A stretch of 64,000 nt of DNA from Candidatus Omnitrophota bacterium (GTDB lineage Bacteria; Omnitrophota; Gorgyraeia; Duberdicusellales; 4484-171). The DNA is taken from positions 16,022 to 80,021 of the forward strand of contig JAAEQW010000327.1 in assembly GCA_024231025.1 (NCBI GenBank), read 5' to 3'. Each line of letters starts with the position of its first letter. The first letter of the stretch is position 1. Of the stretch, positions 4,620-57,845 are shown one piece after another. Made by a program: the position numbers and the translations under genes. The notes under the pieces are model-generated. The model was not told the DNA's origin. It worked only from the letters and a program-made list of their open reading frames with translations, and searched no databases.

Positions 4620-4620
4620 G

Positions 4621-9398: not shown

Positions 9399-9859
9399 TT
9401 TAATATCTCCTCTTCTATAAATTCATCTTGTGCTTCTACCATATCGTCCTTGCTTGCATTTAGGATAAACCGCTTACCTCCCAGAGTTGACACGTTCGCC
9501 TCTGATTGAAACTGAGCCGCTGCTGCAACCTCAATCTTTACATTATGTAATTTGCTCAAAAGCGCTACCTGCAAACTTCCGGTTAATGCAAATACTCCAT
9601 CTTTAGTTTGATTTTTGCAAAAAATAATTGTTTTATATATCCTGTTTTGTTGAAAAAGTAATCCCAGCGCGTTATCAGTACAATAAACAAACTGGATATT
9701 CTTTTTCTTTAGTAATGGGCAGTTGTGCAACAATCCAACCATGAATGGACGATTTTCAGCAACCACAACGAGCCACCCGCTTTGACGAATTCGCAAAATC
9801 CCCTCTTCAGATATTGGCCCCCAAACTAAAACTGCTTTTTTGATGTCGTTAAGCTTCAT
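9395..9859 (-). CDS. Truncated eIF-2B/MtnA-family paralog (Rossmann-like half only)
   Basis: VVVAENRPFMVG...FALTGSLQVALLSKLHNVKIEV parallels the ETRPYLQG...NKLGTYSLACLAKHFGIAFY segment of the adjacent full-length gene. Confidence 0.4.
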   Translation of the reverse strand: MKLNDIKKAVLVWGPISEEGILRIRQSGWLVVVAENRPFMVGLLHNCPLLKKKNIQFVYCTDNALGLLFQQNRIYKTIIFCKNQTKDGVFALTGSLQVALLSKLHNVKIEVAAAAQFQSEANVSTLGGKRFILNASKDDMVEAQDEFIEEEILK

Positions 9860-10832: not shown

Positions 10833-11717
10833 TTAACTAAAAAGATTTAAGAAATTTTTGCTGGTTATCTTTTCTTTTAAATCATCCCCTAACTCATCAA
10901 GCATCGCGATATTGCTGCTGATATCGCCACATACCGGATAATCTGAGCCCCACAACACCTTGTCTTGACCGAATAAATCTATTGCCTGATTAATATTACT
11001 TAATGGTGACCCGGATGTATCTACATATACGCCTTTCAAAATATTAGACGGATCATCACCCAAATCTTTGACCATGCCTCGCGCTCTTAGCATAGTATAC
11101 ACTCTATCAAGACGATCTTTCAAAAAAGGCACAATACCTGCCAAGGAAGAGAAAATAAATTTAGCACCACTGCTTAAGATTCCTTCGGTCATTAAAATCC
11201 CCAGACACATCGAAACGTCAAAGCTGTATTCCAACACCGGCATAAGCAATGGGTCCTTAACTCTTTCAAAGCCAATTGGATTAATCGTTTGCGGATGGAC
11301 AAAAATAACCAAATTATTTTCCTGCGCAGATTGCGCCAATAAAGCTATTTTCTCAGTTAAAAATTTACCACCCTCAGAAGACGCAATGCTCACCGCGCTA
11401 AAGCGCTGCTCTCTAATTTGTTTTATCTGTGCTGGTATGTCGCTATCGAAATCGACAATACCCGCACCAATTATTTTTTTATTTTTGGTAATAATTTTAG
11501 AAATTTCGCTATTATAAAGGTCGCACACTCGTCTGGCTCCTAAGCTGGTTGCGGCATCGGTCGAAGGATAAACTAAAAAAGCTTTATCAACGCTATCAAG
11601 ATAAGACAAAAGCTTATCCTCATCAGACCAAACTCCTTTATAAAATAAAGTGGCTTCGGATATTTTAGGCGGAATGAAATGAATATGACTATCACAAATC
11701 ATAGCTACACCCCTCAT
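10833..11717 (-). CDS. Amidohydrolase-2 (ACMSD/LigW-like TIM-barrel metal-dependent hydrolase or decarboxylase) family protein
   Basis: N-terminal CDSHIHF metal-binding motif and C-terminal WGSDYP motif, typical of the amidohydrolase_2 family. Confidence 0.6.
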   Translation of the reverse strand: MRGVAMICDSHIHFIPPKISEATLFYKGVWSDEDKLLSYLDSVDKAFLVYPSTDAATSLGARRVCDLYNSEISKIITKNKKIIGAGIVDFDSDIPAQIKQIREQRFSAVSIASSEGGKFLTEKIALLAQSAQENNLVIFVHPQTINPIGFERVKDPLLMPVLEYSFDVSMCLGILMTEGILSSGAKFIFSSLAGIVPFLKDRLDRVYTMLRARGMVKDLGDDPSNILKGVYVDTSGSPLSNINQAIDLFGQDKVLWGSDYPVCGDISSNIAMLDELGDDLKEKITSKNFLNLFS

Positions 11718-13581
11718 CCAATTTTAATCTCTCTATTGTTTCAGACAAAACCTCACCTTGGTTAGTCCAACCACGCTTAAGATAATACGCCTCTAGGAGA
11801 TTGTCGTATTTTTGCCTGTCTAATTTCATTTCCTTATCCTCTTTGCGCACTCCTGCGGTTTCCTTTAATGGCTCAAATGTTTTTTGAGGAGGATAGTCGT
11901 CTTTCCTAGTTATGCCTTCGCGCTGCAAATAAAGTCTTTCTATATTAATAAGCCTTTCTCCTATCTCTTTTAGCTCCTCTTGGGAAAACTTCTCTCCGTA
12001 TGCTGTTTCTATTATCCGAGAAAAAATAGAAAAAGTTATCCCCGGAGGCAACGAATGAAAACCCATGAATTTACATAATCCTAGCATATCAAACATCGCT
12101 AAATAATGCTCCCACCATAAAACAACAATCTCTTTATCTTTATAGGATAAGGCATCGGAATCTACATCTTTTCCATAAACTTCTTTCAAGTCTTTGGTCG
12201 GAAATTCAAAAGCTACCCAAATTGGCCTGCTACGTAAATGATCTGAACCACGAGAAGCTACCGAGTTACTTAAAGCAAAGGCCGGCAAGCAACGCAAATC
12301 TGCTGGTTCTGATTGCACTATTTTTTTACTCCAGCAAAGGTATTGCTCTGACGCTTTCGGCATTTGCTTTAACATATTACGCGGACCAATTGCTATAAAA
12401 TCACCTAGACCGCGTCGATACGCAATATCCTGAATTAAGGAATAAACTAACTCTTGAGAAGACCACTTAAGTTCCTTTCCCTGAGTAAATTTATCGTCTA
12501 TCACCTTATCCTGGTAAAGATCAATCAACCAAGCAATAATATTTGCCGCCGAAGAGGCATCTAGCCCTAGCCGATTCACTAAATCATTGAGCACCAAGCA
12601 GTCTTCTATTCTATTCATGCCTAGCACTGGTCCAAAATGAGCTAAAACACCGTATTCCGGCCCCTCGTTTTTTATTCCTTTGTACTCATAAACATAGTGG
12701 CAGGCAATCACGCAATTCTGACAACCTGCTTTTTTGGTATGAAATTTCTTTAATTCTTCAATATTTATATTTTCATTATTAGTAAAAGCCAAGGTTCTAC
12801 CGTTTTTCACTCTCCCCATGCCTATACTTTCATTAACGATTTCAAAAAGATGACTCGAGCCATATTTTTTAAGCCGATCAGTTAAAAATTCTTTCTGCAG
12901 AAATTGGTTTACTTCTCGCAGGCAATTAGCAAACTCCTGGCTTTGTTCTGGCTCTAAATCCTGCTCACTCACGCAAGAAACAATTGCCTTAACGTTTTTC
13001 GATCCCATAACTGCGCCCATACCGCAACGAGCGGCGGCGTTTTTACGGCGGTTTATAATGCAGGCAAAAACAACCTGGCGCTCTCCGGCCGGACCGATAC
13101 AAAGGGTTTCACTCCCAGGATATTTTTCACAAATTTCACTTTGAGTGTCTTGCGTATCTTTACCCCAAAGATGGTCGGCATCTTCTATGCTTACTTTACC
13201 TTTATTAATAACCACCATCTTTGGAGATTTAGCCTTGTTTTTTAGGATAATGTAACCAAATCCTTGCTTTCTAAGGCTTACACCAAATCCTCCGCCAATG
13301 TTGGCATCACCTAAAATTGCCGACTCCGGTGATTTAGCAGTAATTGTCGTACGAGAGAAATTAAGACCCTTGAGCCCGGTAAGTAATCCTGTTCCAACAA
13401 TAAGAACGTTATCCTTACCTAGGGGGTCGGTAGATGCATCGGTGTATTGATAAAGCAAATAGGAATTAACTCCCCTGGCTCCTAGGTATTTTTTAATGAG
13501 CTCCGGCGCCAAGGCTTTAATCTCTATCTTTTCAGTTTCAAGATCAACAATAATTATTACGTTGGTTTCTTTAATCTTCAT
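11692..13581 (-). CDS. Tungsten-type aldehyde:ferredoxin oxidoreductase (AOR family)
   Basis: N-terminal AOR_N pattern (LIVDLETEKIEIKALAPELIKKYLGARGVNSYLL...LIVGTGLLTG). About 630 aa with a conserved cysteine-containing C-terminal domain. Confidence 0.8.
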   Translation of the reverse strand: MKIKETNVIIIVDLETEKIEIKALAPELIKKYLGARGVNSYLLYQYTDASTDPLGKDNVLIVGTGLLTGLKGLNFSRTTITAKSPESAILGDANIGGGFGVSLRKQGFGYIILKNKAKSPKMVVINKGKVSIEDADHLWGKDTQDTQSEICEKYPGSETLCIGPAGERQVVFACIINRRKNAAARCGMGAVMGSKNVKAIVSCVSEQDLEPEQSQEFANCLREVNQFLQKEFLTDRLKKYGSSHLFEIVNESIGMGRVKNGRTLAFTNNENINIEELKKFHTKKAGCQNCVIACHYVYEYKGIKNEGPEYGVLAHFGPVLGMNRIEDCLVLNDLVNRLGLDASSAANIIAWLIDLYQDKVIDDKFTQGKELKWSSQELVYSLIQDIAYRRGLGDFIAIGPRNMLKQMPKASEQYLCWSKKIVQSEPADLRCLPAFALSNSVASRGSDHLRSRPIWVAFEFPTKDLKEVYGKDVDSDALSYKDKEIVVLWWEHYLAMFDMLGLCKFMGFHSLPPGITFSIFSRIIETAYGEKFSQEELKEIGERLINIERLYLQREGITRKDDYPPQKTFEPLKETAGVRKEDKEMKLDRQKYDNLLEAYYLKRGWTNQGEVLSETIERLKLDEGCSYDL

Positions 13582-15298
13582 CTACGTATTTTGTGTAATC
13601 GAGCTCTGCTTCTTTTAAAATGGTTTTCATTAACCCCTTAAAGGCCGCTGGTACTTCCTGAAAAAAAGCTGTTGCCACCTCTTTTTCCGAAACTAGTCCT
13701 TTATTGTTCTCTCTTGCTAGATTTTCGGACTTCGCTTTCACCATTTTTTCAGCTATACGACGATGAAAGAATGGCATCTTAGAAATTGTTAAATCAAACT
13801 TCCCTTGCGCTTGAGCATCCCAAGAAACCTCAACAGTGCTTGGTTTTTGCCGGGTGGCCGCTCGTTCAAATTCGGTTATATTTTCCATAAAATCCTTCAC
13901 GCATAATTTTGCCAACTCGTCATAAGGTCCTTGAAAAAGCCGCCCGGTTCTGTGAGGCACCGAGAAAAATTCTCGCATACACCATGCTCCTAGCCGACCA
14001 ACATCATCTATAGATAGGTGATTGGTGGGTATAACCGGATGCTGAAAGTCCCATTCGCGCAGATCTAAAGTTTCTAAATTAATCCAACCGCGATCGATAT
14101 ATTTTTTCCAAAACGGCGATCCAGGAACAGGCGTAAAAAACTGTAAAGCAAAAATATCCGGATCAGCCTCATTGGCAAAATCAAATCTACGCTTTATTTT
14201 GGCCTCATCGTCATCTTCTAAACCAACCATAAACGTTCCTATGCTCATTATCCCGTGCTTACGTAAAATTTCGATTGTCTTTACAATCTGATGAGTGCTT
14301 ACATTCTTGCCTATTTTCCTTAACTCCTCATCGCTGGCAACCTCTACCCCTAAAAGCCCCATAAACATACCGGCCTCTTTCATTAAAGGGATAAGCTCAA
14401 GCTGATTTACCCAATCGTCCGCACGGCCTAAAATAACCCATTTCATGTCAATCTTTCTATCTATCATTCCTCTGCAAACTTCTTCAACTATTTTTTTGTT
14501 AACGTTAAACGCGTCATCTTGAAAAACTATAGTTTTGACACCATGTTTTTTGTTTAGCACTTCGAGCTCTTCGAGAATTTTTGGCGCAGATTTTGTTCTC
14601 CAAGATATGAAATCTTTCGGTGAACGAGGATCATATTGCGACCATTCATAGCAGAACACACAACCGCCAGGGCACCCACGAGATACCATCAACTCAGCAA
14701 ACGGTTTCCAATGGCTATGCCCAACGTATTTCTCCATCGGAAACAAATCATAAGCCGGTGTGGGCAATACATCAAGATTCTGAATCAAATTTCTATGCGG
14801 TCCGATAACTGCCTTACCAGCTTTATTGGAAGCTAAGCCCGCGACCTCAGAAAAATCGGTTTCTCCTTCTTTTAGTTTGATCAAAAGTTCTTCTAAGGTT
14901 AGTTCGGCCTCGCCAATAATAACAAAATCTATATCGGGATTGCGCTCCAAAGTATCTTCCCAAAGGGCAGAAAACCACAATCCCCCTACAACGATTTTTG
15001 TTTGTGGTAAAACCTTCTTTATTTCCTTTGCGGCATTGCAAAAATACCAAATCGGAGCAAATCCACCAGTAGAATGAAGAATTTCACCTAGAAAAATAAC
15101 ATCAGGGTTAATTTGTTTTATCTGCTCTATCATCTCAGAAAATTCTATTTTATCTGGACGAGCATCTATAGCAAAGGGTTCTGCTACCCTCTTCTCTCTG
15201 ATATACGCGATCAGTTGAGCATGAAACTGATTAGGCGCACAATGATTACCATGAGTAACCCAAGCACCTAAGGGTGGATTAATAAATGCTATTTTCAT
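13571..15298 (-). CDS. B12-binding radical SAM protein with a C-terminal PCP_red-like domain
   Basis: N-terminal cobalamin-binding domain. Radical SAM CxxxCxxC (CPGGCVFC). The C-terminal ~40 aa (FFQEVPAAFKGLMKTILKEAELDYTKYVDED) is paralogous to the ORF at 23453..23713. Confidence 0.8.
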   Translation of the reverse strand: MKIAFINPPLGAWVTHGNHCAPNQFHAQLIAYIREKRVAEPFAIDARPDKIEFSEMIEQIKQINPDVIFLGEILHSTGGFAPIWYFCNAAKEIKKVLPQTKIVVGGLWFSALWEDTLERNPDIDFVIIGEAELTLEELLIKLKEGETDFSEVAGLASNKAGKAVIGPHRNLIQNLDVLPTPAYDLFPMEKYVGHSHWKPFAELMVSRGCPGGCVFCYEWSQYDPRSPKDFISWRTKSAPKILEELEVLNKKHGVKTIVFQDDAFNVNKKIVEEVCRGMIDRKIDMKWVILGRADDWVNQLELIPLMKEAGMFMGLLGVEVASDEELRKIGKNVSTHQIVKTIEILRKHGIMSIGTFMVGLEDDDEAKIKRRFDFANEADPDIFALQFFTPVPGSPFWKKYIDRGWINLETLDLREWDFQHPVIPTNHLSIDDVGRLGAWCMREFFSVPHRTGRLFQGPYDELAKLCVKDFMENITEFERAATRQKPSTVEVSWDAQAQGKFDLTISKMPFFHRRIAEKMVKAKSENLARENNKGLVSEKEVATAFFQEVPAAFKGLMKTILKEAELDYTKYVDED

Positions 15299-15312: not shown

Positions 15313-16080
15313 CTACTTAACTGGGTGAGCTTGTTTAAATGGAATTACTGGTTTTGTCCATGGAGTTTGCTGATTTATTACCGCAAGCTCCAACGGATTA
15401 ACGTTACCTGTTTGACTAAGCGCAAACATTACTGTATCTGTTATCGCATCCGGCTCCATTAATAAATTGCTATCTACCGAAACATCCTTAAGCTTTCCGG
15501 TTAATGGCGTGCGAGTTACTCCTGGAAAAATTGAAGTAACTTTTATCCCGAAATCACGCATTTCCCAGAAAAGCCCCTTTGCAAAGGCACGCAAAGCAAC
15601 CTTTAATGACGTATATACTATAAAATTACGCGGCGGTGGATCAACCATTACCGAACCACTGGTTATATTAACAATGTGCCCACTACCTTGCTCTTTCATC
15701 TGATTTACAACAAGACGTGCCAGCATGACATAGCTATAATAGTTTGTATACATTACCTTTTCGATATCCTCTAGCGGTTGTTGCCAAAATGGATGCTGAC
15801 TAGATACACCGGCGCCGTTAATTAATATATCGATTTTGCCAAACTTGTTGATTGTCTCATTAACTACATTTTCCAAATCATCCTTTTTGGTAACATCGCA
15901 CTTTAAACATAAAATCTGCTCTTTGTTAGGCATATTGGCCTTAAGTTCTTCTAAAACTTGTTGTCGGCGTGCGGCCAAAACCAAACTCGCGCCAGCCTCA
16001 CTTAAACGCTTAACCATTGATTGACCAATTCCACCTGATGCGCCAGTTACAATACAAACTTTGCTTTTCAAATCAACCAT
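15313..16080 (-). CDS. Short-chain dehydrogenase/reductase (SDR), a candidate ketoreductase
   Basis: TGASGGIGQS NAD(P)-binding motif. NGAG and a downstream catalytic region. 255 aa. Confidence 0.8.
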   Translation of the reverse strand: MVDLKSKVCIVTGASGGIGQSMVKRLSEAGASLVLAARRQQVLEELKANMPNKEQILCLKCDVTKKDDLENVVNETINKFGKIDILINGAGVSSQHPFWQQPLEDIEKVMYTNYYSYVMLARLVVNQMKEQGSGHIVNITSGSVMVDPPPRNFIVYTSLKVALRAFAKGLFWEMRDFGIKVTSIFPGVTRTPLTGKLKDVSVDSNLLMEPDAITDTVMFALSQTGNVNPLELAVINQQTPWTKPVIPFKQAHPVK

Positions 16081-17213
16081 TATCTCCCTCCTGATATAAT
16101 TTTTTCTTTTTTTCTCAAAATAAAACCTAACGAAACAATTGCTACAGCAGCAATTAAAAAATGAAATTCGAAACCAAAAACAAAAATAATTTTTCCTCCC
16201 AAAAATGCCCCTAACCCGCCGGCAATGAAGCGTAAAGCGCTGTTAAGACTTGCCGCATCGCGTAAAAATTCATCCGGTAAACTAGTCAAATATGTTGATA
16301 AGCCAACATGATTAAATGCCCAGCCCGCACCCCAAAAAACAATAATAAAAAAAACCGCCTTGCCGGGCTCAAACAATCCCAACAAAAATATAAACAACCC
16401 CATAGAAAATAATCCCCATGATGCTATTTTTAGCGGAGATATTCGCCCGGACAACAAGCCGCCAAAACTTTCAGAAAAAATTGCGACCAAACTTGATATA
16501 GTAAAAACTAGGCTAATCAAAAATTGATTAAACAAGTATCCTTTCGCTAAAAATACCCCTAACCATTGCTGCACGCCATGATAAAAAAAACTTGCCATAA
16601 ATATAAATCCGAATAGGTGCAAAATTTCTTTGTTTTTGAGTGTTTGAAAATAGGTAATTTTAAAAGAGCTTGTATAATTATAAGCTTTTAGCCAATAAGC
16701 TGCCAGGCCTACAGTTACAGTTCCAACAAAAAAAGGAATAAAATAAACTGCCCGCCAAAATAAAAATCCACTACAAAATGTGCCAATCAACCCCGACAAA
16801 AAAGATAGTGAAAAAAGAATGCCAACGTATTTTGGCTTCTTCTTCGTTTTTATTTCTTTGCCGACGATGATCAAGCTTATCGGCACAAAGCACGAACCAA
16901 ACACCCCCATCCCAAAGCGGCCCCAAAAGGCTGCCTGTAAAGTCGGCGCGGTGCTTATTGTAAACGCCGACAACGAAAACAGCGACAACGCAACAAGAAG
17001 TAGTCTCTTAACAGAAAACTTTCTGGTAAGTGGCCCCCAAAAAAGAGCGCACAATCCATACGGAATCATATAAGCCCAAATAAGTTTGCCGGTAGCAATC
17101 GCAGATTGGCCAAAATAATCAGCAATCGCCGGAATAAGCGGCGCAGTCGCCGCTACACTAAAAGATAGTGTTAAAAAAAGTAAACATAAAATAGAAAATG
17201 AACGTTTATCCAT
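16080..17213 (-). CDS. MFS transporter
   Basis: About 12 predicted transmembrane segments. 377 aa. A 1-nt boundary with the SDR gene. Confidence 0.65.
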   Translation of the reverse strand: MDKRSFSILCLLFLTLSFSVAATAPLIPAIADYFGQSAIATGKLIWAYMIPYGLCALFWGPLTRKFSVKRLLLVALSLFSLSAFTISTAPTLQAAFWGRFGMGVFGSCFVPISLIIVGKEIKTKKKPKYVGILFSLSFLSGLIGTFCSGFLFWRAVYFIPFFVGTVTVGLAAYWLKAYNYTSSFKITYFQTLKNKEILHLFGFIFMASFFYHGVQQWLGVFLAKGYLFNQFLISLVFTISSLVAIFSESFGGLLSGRISPLKIASWGLFSMGLFIFLLGLFEPGKAVFFIIVFWGAGWAFNHVGLSTYLTSLPDEFLRDAASLNSALRFIAGGLGAFLGGKIIFVFGFEFHFLIAAVAIVSLGFILRKKEKIISGGR

Positions 17214-17642
17214 TTAGTTTTTCTCGATAATCTCCTTAAATCTCAGAAGATTTGATTTTGAATGCTTATTTATAAGATCTTGAACTTGATCATCATTAAA
17301 TTTTGCGCCTTTATCCATTTTGAAATCCTGGATCCAGGTCATCTCGATGCCGCCTTCGACCTCTCTATAGAGCCATACAATCTTCATATATTCAAAAGGA
17401 AACATTGGATCCATTCTTGACGCATAGGCAAATTTATCTTCTTTAAAAAGAAGACGATAGGATTGCCAGCTATTGCCATTTTGATGAGTTAGTTTAAAAA
17501 CAATTTTGTTATCTTTTTTTTCGACTACATCCGATTCAGTATACTCAGTAAAAAATTCTTTCCAGAGACTAATATCATTACTCATATCAAAAACCTTATC
17601 GTACGTTGCATTAATCACAATCGAGTTTGCTGTGTGCGCCAT
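17214..17642 (-). CDS. SRPBCC (Polyketide_cyc2 / Bet v1-like) polyketide cyclase/dehydrase-family protein
   Basis: 142 aa with the N-terminal HTANSIVINATYDKVFDMSNDISLWKEFF pattern typical of the Polyketide_cyc2 family. Confidence 0.55.
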   Translation of the reverse strand: MAHTANSIVINATYDKVFDMSNDISLWKEFFTEYTESDVVEKKDNKIVFKLTHQNGNSWQSYRLLFKEDKFAYASRMDPMFPFEYMKIVWLYREVEGGIEMTWIQDFKMDKGAKFNDDQVQDLINKHSKSNLLRFKEIIEKN

Positions 17643-17762: not shown

Positions 17763-18614
17763 CTATCTTCGATCGGAGTTTGTCCCGCCTTTGGCGGGAG
17801 CCTCTGATCCAACCAAAGCTACAACTCTTGCCCAAGCTGCACCGGTTCGTTTTATTTTTACAGGAAAGCACATAATTTTAAATCCATAATCTGGTAGGCT
17901 GCTTAAGTTAGCTAATCTTTCAATGTGAATAAATTCTCGTTTGCGTCCATGAAAATGTGCTGGCCAAAGCGCACATGCATTACCAGTGTCTAGAAATTCC
18001 TTCATCATAAATCGATAGGGCCGATCGATCCCCATTGTATCTACGCCGAATATTTTAATTCCCCGATCCAGTAAATAATCTATTGCTGTGGGATCAACCC
18101 CAGGATAATGCGTGAAATATTTTTGCGTTGTGAATAGCTTGTCGCTACCAGTATAGAATAAAACAATATCATTTGGTTTTAGTTGATAATTAATCTTCTC
18201 CAGTGCTGTTTCAACATCTTTAGCACTTATAAATTCATCAGGTTTTTTGGCACAAAAATCAAGTTTTACTCCGTTTTGATAACATAGCCAAAGCGGAATG
18301 TCTTCTGCCGGTTTGGAATCTCTGCCTTCGCACTTGCTCCCATAATGATAAGAATAGTCAAGATGTGTTCCGCTGTGAACCGAAGAATAAACCATTTCTA
18401 AAGATAAGAACTCTTCTTCGGGCAAATCTTCTTTTTTCACGATTCTCTTGCCTAATAAATATTTTAATTTACCAAAAGGTTGCCGACTCAACATCACCTG
18501 GTTAAGTTTTTCAACTCCTTGGGCATGCGTTGTTCGTTCAATCCGAAGAGGGTGAACTTCATAGGCCTCGTCGTCGATTGGCAAACTTAGATCAACTATC
18601 TGCTGATTATCCAT
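17763..18614 (-). CDS. Cyclase-family protein (PF04199-like; kynurenine formamidase / putative polyketide cyclase fold)
   Basis: HSGTHLDYSYHYG metal-binding motif. The start was re-set to the ATG at 18614 (MDNQQ...) because the longer six-frame ORF overlaps the ACP gene by about 150 nt. Confidence 0.6.
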   Translation of the reverse strand: MDNQQIVDLSLPIDDEAYEVHPLRIERTTHAQGVEKLNQVMLSRQPFGKLKYLLGKRIVKKEDLPEEEFLSLEMVYSSVHSGTHLDYSYHYGSKCEGRDSKPAEDIPLWLCYQNGVKLDFCAKKPDEFISAKDVETALEKINYQLKPNDIVLFYTGSDKLFTTQKYFTHYPGVDPTAIDYLLDRGIKIFGVDTMGIDRPYRFMMKEFLDTGNACALWPAHFHGRKREFIHIERLANLSSLPDYGFKIMCFPVKIKRTGAAWARVVALVGSEAPAKGGTNSDRR

Positions 18615-18843
18615 TCTTTTTCTTTTCAACAATTTCAATAATTTCGTTTGGCGTATTTTTATTAGTGACTTCACCGGGAGACAAGGTGATTCCGATATGC
18701 TTTCCAATCGCAATCGAGAGCTCAACCATCTCGGTTGAATCAACACCCACGCCATCATACAAACTTACGCCTTCTTTAATTTCATCAGAACCTACATCTA
18801 AAGTTTTCGCTATAAGGTCAATTATCTCTTCCTTCATGCTCAT
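18607..18843 (-). CDS. Acyl carrier protein
   Basis: 78 aa with GVDSTEMVEL, a phosphopantetheine-attachment Ser in a DSx motif, and a four-helix ACP length. Confidence 0.8.
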   Translation of the reverse strand: MSMKEEIIDLIAKTLDVGSDEIKEGVSLYDGVGVDSTEMVELSIAIGKHIGITLSPGEVTNKNTPNEIIEIVEKKKNG

Positions 18844-18852: not shown

Positions 18853-20100
18853 TTATTTTTCAATTCCTAAAATTATATTTATCCCGCCCCTGCCTCTTGC
18901 CATAATTAAGGCTCTATTGATTTCTTTTTGTTGCGCTTTATTGGGGGTGCAATCAATTTGACAGCGCGGATCCCTTTCATCAAAATTAATTGTTGGCAAG
19001 ACCAGGTTATTCTTCATTGATAAAAGAGTGGCAATTACATCCAATGCGGTTTGCGCGCCTAATAAATTACCGAACATACTTTTTGGCGCACTCATTGCGA
19101 TATTTTTAAGACTCATGCCAAAAAAATTGTTTAACGCTTGTGCCTCTAAAATATCTCCTGTTTCTGTTGCCTCTCCATCTAAACAAATATAGTCAACATC
19201 GTCTTTTGACCAGGCACAATCTTTCAAGCACTCTTTAATCGCATATTCTAAGCTTTCGGTGTTCATTGAAGGCTTCGCGTAATGCTGCCCATCACAGCTA
19301 AAGCCAATGCCTTTTAAAAATCCAGAAATTTCAACACCTCTTTTCCTTGCATCGCTCTCACGTTCCATTGCAACAATGCCTGATCCTTCACCAATAACAA
19401 ATCCATCACGATATAAATCATACGGCCTGTATGCTTTAGACGGGGTCAAATTGTTCTTTGATAAATCACCCTGAGTATTAGCGCTTAAAAGCGCATACGG
19501 CGTGACAGGGGCCTCCATCCCTCCGGCTAAACAATAATCATTATGCCCATCTTGCAAAACCTTTGCCCCATACCACAAGGCTAGTGCGGACGACGCTCTA
19601 TCAGACACAACTGTTTTGCTGTAGCCCTTTAACCCATAATATATGGTTACTTGCCCCTGCGGTGCAGCAGGAAACCATGCGCTTGCCATATATGGCGATA
19701 TTCCTTCTCTGCCTTCCAAATAAAGATCACGCAATTCAGTTTCAGCAAAAAGCCACCCTCCTAAAGCATTGCCCATAAAAACACCGGCACGATTTTTATC
19801 GATGCTATCTAGCTTTATTTCGGCATCACTTATTGCTTGTTGGCAGGCAACCAATGCCATATGTGAAAAAACATCAATTTTTTTCACAAGCCTGCCAGAA
19901 AGATGTGAATAGGCGTCTAACTGATGTACTTGCCCAGCAATCCGCGATGGATACAACGTCGCATCAAAACGCGTCACTTCATCAACAAAGGAACGCCCTG
20001 ATTTTAAATTTGCCCAGAAAGTCTCCTTCTTTAGTCCTGCGGGAGAGACAACCCCCATGCCTGTTATCGCAATTCTCTCCTTCATTATTTTCCCTCCCAA
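18853..20100 (-). CDS. Ketosynthase-like protein lacking the active-site Cys and His residues (chain-length-factor / KS-beta-like)
   Basis: Thiolase-fold KS homology (GMGVVSPAG...). The active-site position reads VVSDRASSA with no Cys, and the two KS His positions are substituted. It overlaps the upstream KS gene by 16 nt. Confidence 0.75.
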   Translation of the reverse strand: MGGKIMKERIAITGMGVVSPAGLKKETFWANLKSGRSFVDEVTRFDATLYPSRIAGQVHQLDAYSHLSGRLVKKIDVFSHMALVACQQAISDAEIKLDSIDKNRAGVFMGNALGGWLFAETELRDLYLEGREGISPYMASAWFPAAPQGQVTIYYGLKGYSKTVVSDRASSALALWYGAKVLQDGHNDYCLAGGMEAPVTPYALLSANTQGDLSKNNLTPSKAYRPYDLYRDGFVIGEGSGIVAMERESDARKRGVEISGFLKGIGFSCDGQHYAKPSMNTESLEYAIKECLKDCAWSKDDVDYICLDGEATETGDILEAQALNNFFGMSLKNIAMSAPKSMFGNLLGAQTALDVIATLLSMKNNLVLPTINFDERDPRCQIDCTPNKAQQKEINRALIMARGRGGINIILGIEK

Positions 20101-21341
20101 TTCTTAAAGATCAAACTGGAGTGTATTCCTGAAAATCCACTACTGGTTTTTAGTATGTATTTTGGTTTTTTCTCAATCGCCTTATTCGGAATATAGTTTA
20201 AATCACACTTAGGATCTGGTTCTTTTTGATTAATTGTCGGAGGCAACACTCCTTTTTTAAAAGCCATTGCGCACAAGACACCCTCAACCGCATTAGCCGC
20301 AGCTAGTGGGTGTCCGACCATTGACTTAATTGAACTTATTGGAATTTCATAAGCATAATCACCAAACACTGCCTTATAAGCGTTAGTCTCAAAAACATCA
20401 TTTTGACGAGTTGAACTTCCGTGCGCGTTGATATAATCTATTTCTTGCTTTTCGACTTTTGCATCAGCAAAAGATGCCTCAATTGCCTTTACCATTGCAT
20501 CACCTTCGGGAGGAAGGTCGGTCATATGATAAGCGTTGCAACTTGTTCCATATCCCATAATTTCAAAATAGATATCTGCTCCTCTTTTTCTCGCATGCTC
20601 CAGCTCTTCCAAAATTAGTATTCCGCACCCCTCAGACACAACAAATCCACTTCGCCGATTATCAAAAGGGCAACTAGCTTCACCAGGGGAATCATTGTTT
20701 TTTGCTAAGGCATTAATAACATCGAACGCACCAAAGGTAATCGGCGTAATTGGCGCCTCACTTGCACCAGCGACAATAACATCTTGGCGACCATCGCGTA
20801 TTAGTTCATAACTAAATCCGATTGAATCACTTCCCGCAGTGCAACCGGTAGAAACTGTTGTGTTAAGTCCTTTTAAATTGTAAATTGCAGCAATCTCGGC
20901 AGAAGGAGTGTTAAACATCGCAGCATCATAAAGATAATGGCGCCCTTTTCTTGGATCGATAGGATTTTTACCCCAATCAGTAACAAGCAAAAATTCTTCT
21001 TCCATGTAGCGTGTCCCGCAAATCGCATTCGCTAAAATTACACCGCTACGAAAAAGATCAATTTTAGATAGATCTAAGTTGCTATCTTCAATGGCTCCTT
21101 TTGCCGCAGCAATAGCAAACTGAACATATCTGTCCATGCGATCAGGGTTTTTTATACCAAAATTTTGTGGATCAAAATTTAAATCTTGCGAAGCAATTTT
21201 GGAATTAAATAAGCTTACATCAAAGTTATTTACCTTTTCCACGCAGGGCTTTCCATCGATAAGATTTTGATAAAAAGTATTTTTATCTTCACCGGCCGCT
21301 GAAATTATACCGATACCTGTTACAACAACACGTCTTTTCAT
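20085..21341 (-). CDS. Beta-ketoacyl synthase (KS-alpha / FabF-like, catalytically intact)
   Basis: Active-site VSTGCTAGSDSIG. His motifs NAHGSST and SMVGHPLAAA. 418 aa. Confidence 0.85.
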   Translation of the reverse strand: MKRRVVVTGIGIISAAGEDKNTFYQNLIDGKPCVEKVNNFDVSLFNSKIASQDLNFDPQNFGIKNPDRMDRYVQFAIAAAKGAIEDSNLDLSKIDLFRSGVILANAICGTRYMEEEFLLVTDWGKNPIDPRKGRHYLYDAAMFNTPSAEIAAIYNLKGLNTTVSTGCTAGSDSIGFSYELIRDGRQDVIVAGASEAPITPITFGAFDVINALAKNNDSPGEASCPFDNRRSGFVVSEGCGILILEELEHARKRGADIYFEIMGYGTSCNAYHMTDLPPEGDAMVKAIEASFADAKVEKQEIDYINAHGSSTRQNDVFETNAYKAVFGDYAYEIPISSIKSMVGHPLAAANAVEGVLCAMAFKKGVLPPTINQKEPDPKCDLNYIPNKAIEKKPKYILKTSSGFSGIHSSLIFKNWEGK

Positions 21342-21946
21342 TCTTGCTCCTTTTGGCTGTCTATTCTTTTTATTTTAAACTTTATAAAGCCTCCATCTGG
21401 ACAGGCAGTTTGTGTTTTACACTTTGGATCCTGCTCAAATGAAAATGTCGCGTCAAAATTCAAAGCAAATAAAACAGGGAATATCGCGCTATAGGCTGCA
21501 CCACAAAATCCGTCTGGGGTTTTTAATCCCGTAAGTTCCCACTTATCCCCCTGCTTATAGTTAAAAAAACATTTGCCGCTTACTTCCTCAACCTCAACCT
21601 CTAATTTTTTAGGATTAGGGGCACTTGGTTTTTCTAATTGTGGCTTGTTGATAACTTGGTCATTGTCGTCTAAAACCTCTATTTTACAGAGCAACTTTCC
21701 TCCATCGGGACAAGCTGTTGTAATTGATTTTGTATTTTTCATAAATTTAAATTCGCCGCCGAAGGTTAAAGCATAAAAACATGGAAAAGCTACTTTTGTA
21801 AGACCGGCACAAAAATGTTTTGGCGGATGAGTAAAATCATCTAAAATAAATTCGCTACCAACCTCATAACCATGGTAACAATAACCCTTTTTCTCAAGCA
21901 CGGTTACCTTTAATTTGGGAAATTTAGTTTTTTGCATATTGTCCAT
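21338..21946 (-). CDS. Uncharacterised protein made of two tandem ~95-aa Cys-containing repeats (FC[AG]...FP...ACPDGG)
   Basis: Internal duplication: CAGLTKVAFPCFYALTFGGEFKF...TACPDGGKLLCKIEV versus CGAAYSAIFPVLFALNFDATFSF...TACPDGGFIKFKIKRI. 4-nt overlap with the KS gene. Confidence 0.45.
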   Translation of the reverse strand: MDNMQKTKFPKLKVTVLEKKGYCYHGYEVGSEFILDDFTHPPKHFCAGLTKVAFPCFYALTFGGEFKFMKNTKSITTACPDGGKLLCKIEVLDDNDQVINKPQLEKPSAPNPKKLEVEVEEVSGKCFFNYKQGDKWELTGLKTPDGFCGAAYSAIFPVLFALNFDATFSFEQDPKCKTQTACPDGGFIKFKIKRIDSQKEQE

Positions 21947-21957: not shown

Positions 21958-22959
21958 TTATCGTGTTTGGTCATAAATTGCATCAATCAACTCTTCCTTT
22001 GAAAGAAAATCCCCTCCTTGTTCGATCTGATGCACCAGTCTTACTATTTTTGTATTCAATGGCGCCTCTATGTGCTCCTCACCTGCAAGGCGTACGATTT
22101 CACCATTTATATAGTCAATCTCTGATTTTTTACCTCGCTTTATGCTTTGCAGTATTGACCCATAAAGCGGTTCCTCACCCAATGTGCTCATGACTTTAGA
22201 AAACAAGACGGCAGCAGTTTCGATTTGCATGGAAACCAACCCCTCCAACTTTTCCTTAGGGTATGTCGGCAAGCTTTCTAAAATAATTTTACTTTTCCGG
22301 ATAGCAACAAAGGCTTCTCGATTAAGTTCGATCGCTAATTTTGCTATATCCAAATCTGAAAATACTTCCTGCATTGGCTTCCCTAACACAGCCGAAATAC
22401 AATTGTTTAAATTAACAAACAGCTTTAAGTATTTGGCGCCTCTTATATTATTTAAGGTAATCGCGTTAAATGCCCCACCAATACTTTTTGCAACATATTT
22501 TGCTTTTTCCATTGATCCATTAAAAATATTACCGACGATTAAATCACCTTTAAAATTATGAACAATTTTATTCGGCGGATAATACGTGCCGGCAAACATA
22601 ACGATTCCGGTAACAATGTTCTCTTTAGGAAAATATTTATTTAAAATATAGTCGGCCTTTACACCATTCTGCGTTGAAACAATCGTCGCTTCTTTTAAAA
22701 ACTCCACATTTTCCTTAATCAGCGGCTCTAGATCATCTATCTTTGTTGCAAATATTGCGATATCAACTTTTTTTTCCAATTTAACGGCCGCATTAACCTT
22801 TACTTTTTTAGCACCGGCTGCACCATCAATGAGTAATCCTTCTCTATCTAAGGCTTGTTTTTGGTAATCTTTTACAATACCAACAACATCGCAGCTCTCA
22901 GAAAGATACCCTAAAAATAATCCGCCAATGGCGCCACAACCTAAAACTGCTATCTTCAT
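21958..22959 (-). CDS. 2-dehydropantoate 2-reductase (ApbA/PanE) family NAD(P)-dependent oxidoreductase
   Basis: MKIAVLGCGAIGG Rossmann motif and the ApbA-family length and C-terminal domain. Confidence 0.7.
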   Translation of the reverse strand: MKIAVLGCGAIGGLFLGYLSESCDVVGIVKDYQKQALDREGLLIDGAAGAKKVKVNAAVKLEKKVDIAIFATKIDDLEPLIKENVEFLKEATIVSTQNGVKADYILNKYFPKENIVTGIVMFAGTYYPPNKIVHNFKGDLIVGNIFNGSMEKAKYVAKSIGGAFNAITLNNIRGAKYLKLFVNLNNCISAVLGKPMQEVFSDLDIAKLAIELNREAFVAIRKSKIILESLPTYPKEKLEGLVSMQIETAAVLFSKVMSTLGEEPLYGSILQSIKRGKKSEIDYINGEIVRLAGEEHIEAPLNTKIVRLVHQIEQGGDFLSKEELIDAIYDQTR

Positions 22960-23007: not shown

Positions 23008-23460
23008 TTACCTTGCTGAAGCTTGTTTTTTCTCTAGATATTTCTTTAACATTTCCAAAATTAAATCAACATTTTCTATATGTTTCTTTTTTCCAATGAT
23101 ATTCCACATCATCTGATTAAAAAACCCTTTTGGACGACAATCAAAACTATAAACAAGTTGCGTAAACTTGCCCCTGTTTAAATGCATTTCCTCAAACCCA
23201 TCAAAAGCGCCTTTATAAAAAATTCTTTTTAAATAAAACCTGCTCTCATCAATCACTTCATTTTTTGCTTTCCATCTTGGGCCAAAAGGAGTAGTCACAA
23301 TATATGAATAGGTTGCCTCCTCAACAGCAGACTCATCCAAATTACAAATACGCATAATGCTTTCGCTAGGCCACCATTCACTGCTGCCCCAAGAAAGCAT
23401 TTGATTAAAAATATCTTTAGGATTAGCATCGACCATAACGCTTTGTGTGATTCTACTCAT
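23008..23460 (-). CDS. SRPBCC-fold (polyketide cyclase/dehydrase-like) protein
   Basis: N-terminal SVMVDANPKDIFNQMLSWGSSEWWP resembles the Polyketide_cyc2 start. 150 aa. Confidence 0.45.
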   Translation of the reverse strand: MSRITQSVMVDANPKDIFNQMLSWGSSEWWPSESIMRICNLDESAVEEATYSYIVTTPFGPRWKAKNEVIDESRFYLKRIFYKGAFDGFEEMHLNRGKFTQLVYSFDCRPKGFFNQMMWNIIGKKKHIENVDLILEMLKKYLEKKQASAR

Positions 23461-23713
23461 TTATATGCTCCTTATAATCAATTTTTAGATGATCGAGCAG
23501 GCGCACCATCATATCCTTAAAAGCCGGTGGCACCTCTTTAAAAAACGCTTTGATTAAATCAACCTTTTCAACTACTTCTGCGTTACGTGCGCGCGCCAGA
23601 TCTTCTGCCGACCCTTTAACTAAGCTTTGCGCAATGCTACGGTGAAATTGCGGAAGATTGCTGGTTATTTTTTCAAAAAGTTCTTTAGCCTCTTTTTCCC
23701 ACTCTATTGACAT
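23453..23713 (-). CDS. Small PCP_red-like domain protein, a paralog of the C-terminus of the B12-radical SAM protein
   Basis: FFKEVPPAFKDMMVRLLDHLKIDYKEHINE aligns with FFQEVPAAFKGLMKTILKEAELDYTKYVDED of the ORF at 13571..15298. Confidence 0.45.
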   Translation of the reverse strand: MSIEWEKEAKELFEKITSNLPQFHRSIAQSLVKGSAEDLARARNAEVVEKVDLIKAFFKEVPPAFKDMMVRLLDHLKIDYKEHINE

Positions 23714-23715: not shown

Positions 23716-24513
23716 TTACTCCTTATTGTTTGCCATTGAAGCCCCACCAATTAAATCAAACGCCCCTTTGATCATTTTTGCTTCTGATTCAAAAAATTTA
23801 TAATCAGTAAATCCAAGCTTTCCGGTAATCAGATTGTCGGAAACAGATAAAATCGCTGCCACTTTTTTCTTATAAAGATTAGCCACCGTAACAAACGGAC
23901 TGGTTACCATGTCTACCGCAATCGACCCTTTATCAATGTAAGAATTAACGATCTCTTTTGTTTCTCGAAAGATTGCATCGGTTGTCCATATTCCACCACG
24001 ATGAGTCGGACTAATATTTTTAAAATGTGCCTCTAGCTTATCGGTTAGCTCTTTATCTATATAAGAGGTAAAATCATCATCAACATAATACTTAGTTGCC
24101 CCATCACCGCGCTGCACTGAATCAGCAATAATGAAATCACCGATTTCGATATCTTCGCGTAAAGCTCCACATGAACCAATACGGATTAAAGTTTCAATTC
24201 CCCCAACACATAAAAGTTCAGTAGCAAGAGCTGAGTCAGGAGCATAAAAACCCCCGTTACCAACAGTCACCTTCTTTCCTTTATAGTTGCCGCTCCAAAA
24301 AGTGTATCCCAAAAAAGTAAAATTTTTCACGGGATTTTCCAATTTTTGAAGGCACATTTTCGCACGATGAGGCTGACCACTAATTATACCCACCTCACCA
24401 AAATCACCCGGGTGAAATTGTAAAGAATCCAATAAATCCTGCGGTTTCATGTGAACATCTTTTTGCATCATTGATTTGCTCCTCTTTAAAAGACCAAAGA
24501 TCGTAATCTCCAA
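23716..24513 (-). CDS. Purine/uridine nucleoside phosphorylase, DeoD-type (PNP/UDP family); could act as an MTA phosphorylase
   Basis: ISGQPHRAKMCLQKL...GNYKGKKVTVGNGGFYAPDSALATELL...IRIGSCGAL parallels the DeoD phosphate-binding and ribose-binding motifs. Confidence 0.7.
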   Translation of the reverse strand: MEITIFGLLKRSKSMMQKDVHMKPQDLLDSLQFHPGDFGEVGIISGQPHRAKMCLQKLENPVKNFTFLGYTFWSGNYKGKKVTVGNGGFYAPDSALATELLCVGGIETLIRIGSCGALREDIEIGDFIIADSVQRGDGATKYYVDDDFTSYIDKELTDKLEAHFKNISPTHRGGIWTTDAIFRETKEIVNSYIDKGSIAVDMVTSPFVTVANLYKKKVAAILSVSDNLITGKLGFTDYKFFESEAKMIKGAFDLIGGASMANNKE

Positions 24514-24522: not shown

Positions 24523-24557
24523 CTATGGTCTATGGTCTATGGTCTATGGTCTATGGT
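24523..24557. repeat. Heptamer tandem repeat (ctatggt x5) overlapping the last four codons and the stop of the acyl-CoA ligase gene
   Basis: Read directly. Related ggtctatggtct copies occur at 17660-17695 (intergenic) and 35703-35745 (inside the giant gene, encoding RDHRPETID). Confidence 0.85.
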
Positions 24558-26040
24558 CTAACTCGCTTTTGTCAATTTTGCCGACTCTGTTTTTTGGTAA
24601 TTGGCTCACAAATTCAAAGTAATGCGGAATCTTAAAGTGCGCCAGGTGTTGCTTTAAAAATTCTTTTAGCTCGACCTCCTCTAAGCTTTCTCCTTTCTTA
24701 ATTACGATAAAAGCTTTAGGAACCTCACCGCGTAATTTATCGAACACACCAATAACCGCCGTTTCTTCAACTTTTGTGTGGCGTTGTATTTTTTCTTCTA
24801 CTTCAAATGAAAAAACAATCTCACCGGCAACTTTGATCATTTCTTTTATCCGACCAATTATATAATAAAGTCCGTCTTGATCACGTCGGGCAATGTCGCC
24901 GGTTTTAAGCCACCCATCTTCGGTTAGTGTCTCTTTTGTTAATACCGAATTTTTATAATAGCCGACCATAACCCCCTCGCCTTTAATTAAAAGCTCCCCT
25001 TGATCGACAAGATTTCCTTCATCGTCAATAAGTTTTGCTTCAGTATTAAAATCAAATTTACCAATACTATTAATTTTTGATATATCTTGAGGCGAAAAAG
25101 CATTCGGGGCCGCTGTTTCAGTCATTCCCCAACCATTAAGTAATTTTGCTTCTGGAGAAAGCTCTTGAAACTTTTTTAATAACACCGGCGAAGAAGGCGC
25201 GCCAAAAACAACCGCATAGCGTAATGATGAAAAATTAAATCGTGCTGCATCTTTTAAAGAAAGAATTGCAATAAACATTGCCGGCACAATACAAAATATA
25301 GAAACCTTATGTTTTTCAATGTTTTTTATGAATTCAAAAGGATTAAAGCGCGTTGTTAAAACAAGTGTTGTCGCGAAATTCAACATAAAAAGAATGTAAT
25401 CTAATCCTCCCAAATGCGAAAAAGGCACTCCCGCACACATAAACACATCTTGATCAGTTACTTCTAGAAAATGATTAACATTTTTAACCGGATTATCAAG
25501 ATGACTATAGTTTAGCATTACTCCTTTTGGCTGGCCGGTAGAGCCAGATGTATAAAAAATAGACGATAAGCTATCTTCTTTAATATCGACATCTGGAGCA
25601 TCGGAACTGGCTTGGCAAACTTGCTGCCAAGAAGTAAACTCCGCAAGTTCTTGATCTGGCTGCCCACAAACTACTATTTCTTTTAAATTCGGACACTTTT
25701 GTTTTATGCTATTTAAATCAATTCCCTTTTTAGGAAAAACGATTAAGATTTTTGCTTCGCTGTGATTAATAATATGGATCATTTCACTCTCGGTGAGCAT
25801 AAAATCTACCGGAACGGCACAAGCTCCTTTGCTAAAAACACCGAGCAGAGAAAAAACTGCTTCAGGAATATTTGGAAGATAAACCGCAATCTTCTCGCCA
25901 ACACTGACTGAAAGATGGTTGGCAACCCTAAAAGATGCCTCTTTCAGCTGTAAATACGTGATGGTCCGATCTTCAAAAAGAATTGCGCTCTTTTTGGGGT
26001 AGTTTTCGGCCTGTTTGACTAATAATTCCTTGATATTCAT
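24544..26040 (-). CDS. AMP-dependent synthetase/ligase (acyl-CoA or acyl-ACP ligase)
   Basis: AMP-binding motif YTSGSTGQPKGV. Downstream GWGMTE and DGWLKTGD motifs. 498 aa. Confidence 0.85.
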   Translation of the reverse strand: MNIKELLVKQAENYPKKSAILFEDRTITYLQLKEASFRVANHLSVSVGEKIAVYLPNIPEAVFSLLGVFSKGACAVPVDFMLTESEMIHIINHSEAKILIVFPKKGIDLNSIKQKCPNLKEIVVCGQPDQELAEFTSWQQVCQASSDAPDVDIKEDSLSSIFYTSGSTGQPKGVMLNYSHLDNPVKNVNHFLEVTDQDVFMCAGVPFSHLGGLDYILFMLNFATTLVLTTRFNPFEFIKNIEKHKVSIFCIVPAMFIAILSLKDAARFNFSSLRYAVVFGAPSSPVLLKKFQELSPEAKLLNGWGMTETAAPNAFSPQDISKINSIGKFDFNTEAKLIDDEGNLVDQGELLIKGEGVMVGYYKNSVLTKETLTEDGWLKTGDIARRDQDGLYYIIGRIKEMIKVAGEIVFSFEVEEKIQRHTKVEETAVIGVFDKLRGEVPKAFIVIKKGESLEEVELKEFLKQHLAHFKIPHYFEFVSQLPKNRVGKIDKSELDHRP

Positions 26041-57550: not shown

Positions 57551-57590
57551 AAAACAAAAAACCGCCCGAAAGGGCGGATTTTTTATTTTT
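57551..57590. terminator. Bidirectional rho-independent terminator (ccgccc-gaaa-gggcgg flanked by A- and T-tracts) ending the minus-strand tRNA transcript
   Basis: Perfect 6-bp GC stem with a GAAA loop, T-run 57579-57590 and A-run 57551-57561. It lies directly 3' of tRNA-Asp on the minus strand. Confidence 0.7.

Positions 57591-57768: not shown

Positions 57769-57845
<77 letters not shown>

Follow-up and report, generated by a model that had tools for sequence, protein, structure and literature searches.

A conserved ketosynthase pair in Candidatus Omnitrophota that very probably represents the KSalpha and chain-length factor subunits of an aromatic type II polyketide synthase

Within a 64,000-nt stretch of a Candidatus Omnitrophota bacterium genome (assembly GCA_024231025.1, contig JAAEQW010000327.1, positions 16,022 to 80,021 of the forward strand; hereafter, the window), we characterized two adjacent genes for ketosynthase (KS)-fold proteins, called KS1 and KS2, as candidate type II polyketide synthase (PKS) subunits. 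The list of open reading frames (ORFs) placed them in tandem on the minus strand, head to tail, as products of 418 aa (20085-21341) and 415 aa (18853-20100). Both carry the N- and C-terminal ketoacyl-synt Pfam domains, which bears out an earlier note on this DNA that had described two KS-fold ORFs here, and they share 33% identity. The pair and its junction are laid out as follows.

20085..21341, minus strand: KS1, probable KSalpha and catalytic ketosynthase, 418 aa; C167 at 20841-20843, H272 at 20526-20528, H307 at 20421-20423
18853..20085, minus strand: KS2, probable chain-length factor (CLF)/KSbeta, 410 aa; ATG at 20085; R163 at 19597-19599, H268 at 19282-19284, D303 at 19177-19179, then K335 and N340
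20083..20100, minus strand: KS1/KS2 junction; GGGAGGGA Shine-Dalgarno, KS1 TAA at 20087-20085, KS2 ATG at 20085-20083

The junction reads TGGGAGGGAAAATAATGAAGGAG. A GGAGG box is followed by the TAA that ends KS1, whose last base is also the first of an ATG (TAATG). This ATG (20085-20083) lies 7 nt past GGGAGGGA and yields a protein of 410 aa, which agrees with the NCBI model for the 100%-identical protein and with almost every orthologue (410-411 aa). An alternative start at 20100, the first in-frame TTG, would give a 16-nt overlap with KS1. Judged from the sequence, the most likely start of KS2 is the ATG at 20085, with a 1-nt overlap; the 16-nt overlap of the earlier note, which rests on the TTG, gives way to this shorter one. 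Even with a 1-nt overlap, the two genes are tightly coupled. On its upstream side, KS1 begins within the stop of a gene for a 202-aa protein (ATGA, 21338-21341), so that three genes are coupled.

For comparison, a KS2 scan of one genome per GTDB species returned 101 relatives, of which the best 80 were kept; 33 loci had complete 10-kb flanks and are referred to as full loci. The same pair recurs in all 80 loci, so it is not a chance pattern. Distances from the KS1 stop to the KS2 start were mostly between -13 and +19 nt, a measure used for its mode alone, as about one-quarter of loci were affected by a wrong paralogue in tblastn or by a contig end. Overlapping stop and start codons, with the KS upstream and the CLF downstream, are the usual arrangement of type II PKSs (PMC9006962), and KS1 and KS2 show both this order and the overlap.

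KS1 has a complete catalytic set (STGC167TAGS, CNAYH272MTD, INAH307GSST, K339, and GH344), in line with the intact Cys and both His motifs reported in the earlier note. Alongside the triad, it contains the KSalpha-type motifs STGCT, CNAYHMT, and INAHGSSTRQND, as well as the KSalpha-specific insertion. Among proteins of solved structure, its best matches were the actinorhodin (act) KSalpha (1TQY_A) and AntD of the Photorhabdus anthraquinone system (6SMO_B), each at 363 bits, while every FabF scored 336 bits or less. In a neighbor-joining (NJ) tree, KS1 grouped with partner KSs, AntD, and the act KSalpha in one clade with 92% bootstrap support. The Cys-His-His-Lys-His set was kept in KS1 of 76 of the 80 loci; the remaining four show the KS2 pattern and are cross-matches to KS2, which we attributed to contigs that end before KS1.

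KS2 retains the fold and lacks most of this machinery. Arg163 (VVSD-R-ASSA) faces the catalytic Cys in the phmmer alignments with the Listeria and Thermus FabFs and in three independent MAFFT alignments with KS1, the act KSalpha, AntD, and the act CLF. Because Arg163 takes this position in every alignment made, the local register used in the earlier note was correct, and a shift that might have hidden a Cys at the catalytic position did not occur. The second catalytic His is replaced by Asp303 (ICLDGEAT) and the GH histidine by Asn340. The first catalytic His is kept, in CDGQH268YAK aligned to GDAYH of FabF. The claim that KS2 lacks the whole Cys-His-His triad thus stands for the Cys and the second His and falls for the first.

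The NJ tree (52 sequences, 405 columns, 100 bootstraps) placed the act CLF in one clade with KS2 and its orthologues and with further single-domain proteins that lack the Cys, at 97% support, and the FabFs fell outside both the CLF and the KSalpha clades. The HMMER search at 50% representatives was dominated by multi-KS type I megasynthases, which left about 30 usable single-domain proteins. The degenerate C-terminal halves of KS-KS fusion proteins also fell outside the CLF clade, which argues against pure long-branch attraction. Motifs restricted to CLFs are common to KS2, the act CLF, and PcyF, the CLF of the pyxidicycline PKS. These are an acidic residue before the former Cys, AWF (MMIPDM in FabF), Asp at the second His, and (A/G)RGxxG, which in KS2 reads ARGxGG, in place of the GFGG gate. 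An AlphaFold 2 (AF2) model of KS2 forms a complete KS fold (predicted local distance difference test score [pLDDT] of 93), with template modeling (TM) scores of 0.96 to FabF and 0.93 to the act CLF. KS2 therefore combines a full KS fold without an active-site Cys, CLF motifs, and grouping with CLFs in the NJ tree. Taken with the features of KS1, this supports at the sequence level the likeness to the KSalpha/CLF pairs of aromatic PKSs that the earlier note had drawn, and we conclude that KS1 and KS2 are very probably the KSalpha and KSbeta/CLF subunits of a minimal aromatic (type II) PKS of Candidatus Omnitrophota.

The position occupied by Gln in actinomycete CLFs, to which the earlier note had pointed, holds Arg in KS2 and Lys or Arg in all orthologues. 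We recorded the residues at the position before the Cys, the Cys, the first His (His1), the second His (His2), the Lys, and the GH histidine of KS2 in 79 species-representative Omnitrophota genomes, with the following patterns.

DKHDKN: 34 genomes
DRDDKN: 28 genomes
DRHDKN: 12 genomes
DKDDKN: 4 genomes
DRNDKN: 1 genome

The former Cys position was Lys in 38 and Arg in 41, and never Gln. No exception (79/79) was seen to the Asp-Lys/Arg pair, to Asp in place of His2, or to Lys335, W111, L118, and S135, and A114 was Ala in 73 and Gly in 6. His1 was kept in 46 of the 79; the 33 with Asp or Asn comprise all 29 members of the lower-identity lineage and 4 closer orthologues. Because it has been lost from a whole second lineage and from four closer genomes, His1 of KS2 is probably not functional. 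W111, A114, L118, and S135 are the equivalents of the tunnel-lining F109, T112, F116, and F133 of the act CLF, and their near invariance implies one fixed chain length across the phylum. A prediction of that length from the gatekeeper residues was set aside as unreliable at 30% identity to the act CLF. CLF-like proteins of the Arg type are also frequent outside Omnitrophota, and further ones from environmental sequences carry Gly, Ala, or Ser at the former Cys. AntE, the CLF of the Photorhabdus system, has Asp at the Gln position (PMC6638757) and PcyF has Arg, so Gln is a feature of the actinomycete subclade and not of CLFs in general.

Such strict conservation could instead mean that KS2 has chemistry of its own, either decarboxylating malonyl-ACP (acyl carrier protein) for priming or directing cyclization in the manner of AmcG, through Asp162-Arg/Lys163, K335, and sometimes H268. 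The invariance of Asp-Lys/Arg and K335 in 79 species would fit this, as would the identity of KS2 among close relatives (about 72%), which resembles that of the catalytic KS1 and exceeds that of the Era GTPase. Noncanonical partners with new roles are also known, as in AmcF-AmcG (PMC10698177). However, His2 is always Asp and His1 is replaced in 33 of 79 genomes, so that the His-His pair for KS-type decarboxylation is not conserved, and a cationic side chain does not mimic an acyl-thioester as Gln does (PMC9006962). AmcG, moreover, lacks KS motifs and secondary-structure elements (PMC10698177), whereas KS2 has a complete KS fold, and PcyF, itself of the Arg type, serves a conventional anthraquinone-type pathway (PMC5982219). 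We therefore consider an independent chemistry of KS2 unlikely.

The CLF assignment is further informed by the genes around the pair. KS1 and KS2 lie within an operon of about 15 genes on the minus strand, whose remaining members are listed below in order of transcription with their occurrence in the full loci.

24544..26040, minus strand: acyl-AMP/CoA ligase, first operon gene; Pfam AMP-binding; 23/33
23716-24513, minus strand: PNP_UDP_1 nucleoside phosphorylase/nucleosidase (PNP); 29/33
23453-23713, minus strand: DUF2621/PCP_red-like protein, 86 aa; 31/33
23008-23460, minus strand: 150-aa protein without a family match
21958..22959, minus strand: ketopantoate-reductase-like (KPR-like) NAD(P)H oxidoreductase; Pfam ApbA and ApbA_C; 32/33
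21338..21946, minus strand: tandem TIGR04076 protein, 202 aa; NCBIfam TIGR04076 twice; 28/33
18607..18843, minus strand: ACP, 78 aa, GVDS37TEMVEL; Pfam PP-binding, E = 5.6e-9; 32/33
17763..18614, minus strand: PF04199 cyclase, 283 aa, ATG at 18614; Pfam E = 1e-26; 33/33
17214..17642, minus strand: mono-domain SRPBCC aromatase/cyclase (ARO/CYC), TcmN/WhiE-ORFVI type, 142 aa; Pfam Polyketide_cyc and Polyketide_cyc2; 33/33
16080..17213, minus strand: major facilitator superfamily (MFS) transporter, presumed exporter; Pfam MFS_1, drug-efflux MFS models weakly; 31/33
15313..16080, minus strand: short-chain dehydrogenase/reductase (SDR), candidate polyketide ketoreductase; Pfam adh_short and KR; 27% identity to PcyD; 31/33
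13571..15298, minus strand: B12-binding radical S-adenosylmethionine (rSAM) enzyme, BchE/HpnJ-like; best NCBIfam model BchE at 204 bits, under cut-off; 31/33
11692-13581, minus strand: aldehyde:ferredoxin oxidoreductase (AFOR), between the rSAM and Amidohydro_2 genes
10833-11717, minus strand: Amidohydro_2 protein; 29/33
9856-10755 and 9395-9859, minus strand: MtnA-like IF-2B protein in two ORFs, 299 aa and 154 aa; 27/33
8427-9398, minus strand: class II aldolase with SCP2; 23/33

Closest to the pair are the genes most telling of aromatic chemistry. The ACP gene starts 9 nt past the KS2 stop, and a dedicated ACP and an ARO/CYC accompany the pair in 32 and 33 of the 33 full loci, respectively. 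The PF04199 cyclase matches PcyB, a second-ring cyclase, over its full length (38% identity, E = 3e-64). Its ORF (17763-18758, minus strand) has a 48-codon 5' extension into the ACP gene, and the conserved protein begins at the ATG at 18614 (MDNQQIV). The SRPBCC protein matches the TcmN ARO/CYC structures 2REZ and 2RER over its full length (E = 3e-27), and it matches other "polyketide cyclase" chains in the PDB too. This full-length match is direct evidence for aromatic polyketide chemistry. By sequence, a TcmN-type ARO/CYC points to cyclization of a largely unreduced chain, as in the tetracenomycin (TcmN) and spore pigment (WhiE-ORFVI) systems. Unlike the TcmN system, the operon holds a highly conserved SDR, a possible ketoreductase, and no TcmI-, TcmJ-, or TcmH-type proteins were found.

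The earlier note had also compared the pair with the aryl-polyene proteins ApeO and ApeC, in which a KS and a Cys-less partner, likewise encoded by neighboring genes, form a heterodimer. This comparison breaks down on the partner. ApeC has one thiolase fold and roughly half the usual size (PMC8358021); KS2, with its 410 aa, is a full-length double-thiolase protein that has both of the Pfam halves and gives a complete AF2 model, and it is therefore not ApeC-like. AntE, Iga12, and ApeC ranked below FabFs in the PDB search for every query and were compared by their published descriptions. A highly reducing or aryl-polyene type II PKS of the ApeO/ApeC or Iga11/Iga12 kind, with a polyene or lipid product, would draw some support from the SDR and AMP ligase in the operon and from "ladderane"-like lipid clusters that antiSMASH-type screens have reported in Omnitrophota metagenome-assembled genomes (MAGs) (PMC9902471). 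Nevertheless, the operon has a single ACP, no dehydratase or enoyl reductase was found in it, and the 7.4-28.5 kb region held no dehydratase, second ACP, or second homodimeric KS. The two ACPs, ApeR-type KS, ketoreductase and dehydratase pair, and lipid-export genes of the aryl-polyene systems are thus not matched here, and the TcmN-type ARO/CYC and PcyB-like cyclase are invariant neighbors instead. KS1 also scored only 224 bits against Iga11, compared with 363 bits against the act KSalpha and AntD, and the ladderane-type rSAM model fell far under its cut-off. A polyene or lipid product is accordingly very improbable.

Among characterized systems, one of the closest to the proposed type II PKS is the pyxidicycline PKS of Pyxidicoccus fallax, which has the same KSalpha-CLF-ACP order with overlapping KS and CLF genes. 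Identities were 51% between KS1 and PcyE, 37% between KS2 and PcyF, and 38% between the cyclase and PcyB. PcyF resembles KS2 in its acidic residue and Arg at the former Cys, its retained His1, Asp at His2, and the WFPAAPQGQ motif; it has GH where KS2 has GN. On the P. fallax contig JABBJJ010000119.1, the genes run thioester hydrolase, PF04199 cyclase, di-domain ARO/CYC, ketoreductase, KSalpha, CLF, ACP, and phosphopantetheinyl transferase (PPTase), alongside a divergent AMP-ligase/cyclase, a muconolactone-isomerase-like gene, and a cyclase. This order matches the published pcyA-L cluster (PMC5982219), and the CLF gene (P0284, 10001-11242) is pcyF, with Glu-Arg where actinomycete CLFs have Glu-Gln. 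The cluster is tied by experiment to anthraquinone-type aromatic polyketides (PMC5982219); the passages of that account consulted carry no comment on the Glu-Arg of PcyF. An Arg-type CLF therefore works in a proven aromatic PKS. The two clusters differ in their accessory genes. Those on the pcy side include PcyC, which is a di-domain ARO/CYC, and a C9 ketoreductase adjoining the KS, as well as a PPTase, a hydrolase of thioesters, and a fused AMP-ligase/cyclase through which serine is incorporated. In contrast, the window has a mono-domain TcmN-type ARO/CYC, neither a PPTase nor a hydrolase, and accessory TIGR04076, KPR-like reductase, B12-rSAM, Amidohydro_2, and AFOR genes.

In the act system, KS, CLF, and ACP genes are adjacent, as in the window. 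The act KSalpha shares with AntD the rank of best solved match of KS1, and the act CLF, which falls in the KS2 clade, resembles KS2 in having Asp at His2, a retained Lys, AWF, and ARGxxG for the GFGG gate. It differs from KS2 in having Gln161 in place of Arg163, in the loss of the His1 segment that includes H268 in KS2, in its greater distance from FabF, and in the tunnel residues given above. The Photorhabdus anthraquinone PKS is a non-actinobacterial type II system, whose AntE is like KS2 in lacking Gln and unlike it in having Asp rather than Arg at the former Cys (PMC6638757). AntE is divergent and was not among the top 60 solved matches of KS2 or PcyF. The acyl-AMP/CoA ligase of the window is a candidate for starter-unit activation or for a role like that of AntG, a CoA ligase whose gene belongs to the Photorhabdus cluster.

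Several observations weigh against reading the pair as a KSalpha and CLF. KS2 scored higher against FabF (266 bits) than against the act CLF (208 bits), and Foldseek searches with the KS2 model gave TM scores of at least 0.93 for FabFs and CLFs both, with no separation. The tree was built by NJ, a distance method, alone, and fast-evolving inactive paralogues can attract each other. KS2 has no Gln at the former Cys, the "chain initiation factor" signature of actinomycetes, and the retention of His1 in 46 of 79 orthologues means that some residual chemistry in KS2 is possible. No PPTase or malonyl-CoA:ACP transacylase gene was found within the operon, and the TIGR04076, KPR-like, PNP, IF-2B, and aldolase genes are without precedent in characterized type II PKS clusters. 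On the matter of scores, the act CLF itself (the query is identical to 1TQY_B) reached no more than 200 bits against any FabF, and for this reason we regard KS2 as a less diverged CLF.

The FabF matches bear on a further account, in which both proteins would serve fatty-acid synthesis as paralogues of FabF, with KS2 a degenerate or regulatory copy and the cyclase-like neighbors unrelated. NCBI names both proteins "beta-ketoacyl-ACP synthase family protein," the best NCBIfam model of each is FabF at a score under cut-off, the top sequence and fold matches of KS2 are FabFs, and the very high conservation of the pair resembles that of primary metabolism. But the FabF model (TIGR03150) gave 442 bits for KS1 and 350 bits for KS2 against an equivalog cut-off of 493.75, which places both outside FabF. 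KS1 has KSalpha-specific and KS2 CLF-specific features, KS2 lacks both Cys and His2, no FabH, FabG, FabZ, FabI, or FabD set is adjacent, and polyketide cyclases are fixed neighbors. We give a role in fatty-acid synthesis very little credence.

What is known of the structures and enzymology of the act, Ant, and Iga systems (PMC9006962) suggests the following scheme for a KSalpha/CLF pair. KS1 and KS2, made from coupled genes, would form a heterodimer. By homology, KS1 (Cys167/His272/His307) would carry out iterative decarboxylative Claisen condensations with malonyl units from the adjacent ACP. KS2 cannot condense, since Arg163 leaves it without a nucleophile and Asp303 without the second His; it would instead form the opposite wall of the acyl tunnel, close the tunnel at its end, and share in docking the ACP. 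Given that Gln is absent and the His pair is not conserved, KS2 is probably not a malonyl-ACP decarboxylase, in which case KS1, or an acid that the AMP ligase activates as a starter, would see to priming. Folding and aromatization of the poly-beta-ketone would fall to the TcmN-type ARO/CYC together with the PcyB-like PF04199 cyclase, with the SDR possibly reducing one carbonyl. Tailoring could proceed independently of O2 through the B12-rSAM enzyme, the Amidohydro_2 protein, and the KPR-like reductase, although the roles of these three are guesses; the Amidohydro_2 family includes aromatic-acid decarboxylases. The MFS pump would export the product.

The operon has been kept nearly unchanged in at least about 100 Omnitrophota species. 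An exact search for the KS2 of the window in a contig index returned nothing, but an identical protein is annotated in NCBI from a Candidatus Omnitrophica MAG, and the best 80 of the 101 relatives are almost all Omnitrophota MAGs, in two tiers of identity (67-78% and 54-59%). The count of at least 101 species comes from incomplete MAGs and is not a prevalence. KS1, KS2, the cyclase, and the ARO/CYC were present in all 33 full loci, the order and strand of the operon genes were uniform across these loci, and gene calls showed the same operon in three complete chromosomes (1.27, 1.52, and 1.82 Mb). Fifteen loci extend far enough to include Era and the TrmA-like gene on the flank, and in these the operon core was more conserved than the two neighboring housekeeping genes, as shown by median identities to the window.

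SDR: 75%
KS1: 74%
ARO/CYC: 74%
KS2: 72%
PNP: 70%
Cyclase: 68%
Era: 60%
TrmA-like: 58%

Some third-party assemblies labeled Planctomycetia or Planctomycetales carry the operon. A 12.8-kb contig labeled "Methanosarcinales archaeon" (JAIWAR010000044.1) also encodes a KS2 orthologue with 71% identity and is most likely misbinned Omnitrophota DNA.

Other features of the operon stand apart from the PKS core. The tandem form of the TIGR04076 protein is almost confined to Omnitrophota, and each repeat has a conserved Cys, a His, and a CPDGG motif; its AF2 model (pLDDT of 92) matched no solved fold, with a best Foldseek E of 0.19. An AFOR lies within 10 kb in only 2 of the 80 loci, and in one related locus (L005, 5232-8729) it is fused N-terminally to the KPR-like reductase in a protein of 1165 aa. 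In the window and in L005, L006, and L007, the PKS is flanked, in an order that is conserved, by genes for the PNP_UDP_1 protein, MtnA-like isomerase, and class II aldolase, along with one for AFOR or an aldehyde dehydrogenase; a radical SAM gene adjoins the set. The two-gene split of IF-2B is conserved and not a sequencing frameshift, because L005 and L006 were called with the same two genes; in L007 the gene is single, with a product of 313 aa. We take these three enzymes to resemble the "DHAP shunt" (dihydroxyacetone phosphate) for 5'-deoxyadenosine and methylthioadenosine; each scored under its curated NCBIfam cut-off, and the set may merely salvage the rSAM by-product. A menaquinone/futalosine link through PNP_UDP_1 was dropped, as the protein gave weak DeoD and MTAN matches and no match to an Mqn model. 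The best promoter-like match (10/12, 26088-26061) precedes the AMP ligase, and counts of promoter- and terminator-like matches near the operon did not exceed the shuffled expectation. Rfam searches near the operon returned four tRNAs only and no riboswitch or other regulatory RNA.

Elsewhere in the window are three giant minus-strand ORFs, and giant proteins are a reported trait of Omnitrophota. They span 28530-36434 (2634 aa; only HATPase_c, sigma-70 r3/r4-like, and methyltransferase matches), 36686-40813 (1375 aa; PGM_PMM_I match only), and 54050-57304 (1084 aa; no Pfam match). The minus strand also has a cluster of tRNAs for Asp, Val, Leu, and Cys (57590-58072). On the plus strand are a PilM/secretin gene set resembling a type IV pilus or type II secretion system (2211-6183) and a weak remnant of an IS200-like Y1 transposase (46567-47106).

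Research on type II aromatic PKSs has dealt almost wholly with actinomycetes, and we know of only a handful of non-actinobacterial systems with known products (Ant, Pcy, clostrubin, and dendrubin). To our knowledge, no member of the candidate phylum Omnitrophota has been cultured, and no natural product is known from it. A catalogue from 2023 lists 14 phyla in which KS-CLF pairs occur, Candidatus Omnitrophica being one of them (PMC10132072), and our literature search found no paper joining Omnitrophota and ketosynthase; two large genomics studies of the phylum are silent on polyketides. The enzyme type represented by KS1 and KS2 is thus already known. What is unusual is synteny on the scale of a phylum, conservation in very small genomes, and the accessory gene set. 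The hosts are ultrasmall, mostly anaerobic Omnitrophota, and the smallest genomes with the operon are about 1.3 Mb.

More tentatively, the KS/CLF pair may lie at the heart of a vertically inherited operon of about 15 to 18 genes for a lineage-wide, quasi-primary aromatic polyketide, such as a redox-active quinone or a host-interaction factor, built without O2 by the BchE-like B12-rSAM enzyme, AFOR, and the KPR-like reductase. A non-acetate starter might then derive from S-adenosylmethionine by-products by way of PNP, the MtnA-like isomerase, the class II aldolase, AFOR or an aldehyde dehydrogenase, the AMP ligase, and finally the ACP. We offer this broader scenario as a speculation.

The locus would provide Omnitrophota with a complete minimal PKS and its cyclases. 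Its Arg/Lys-type CLF, of a kind widespread in environmental sequences, offers a compact test case for the role of the former active-site residue in CLFs. Moreover, if conservation and synteny in genomes of 1.3-1.8 Mb reflect an essential role, this would be a rare instance of an aromatic polyketide that is made in the absence of oxygen and belongs to the core metabolism of a whole lineage.

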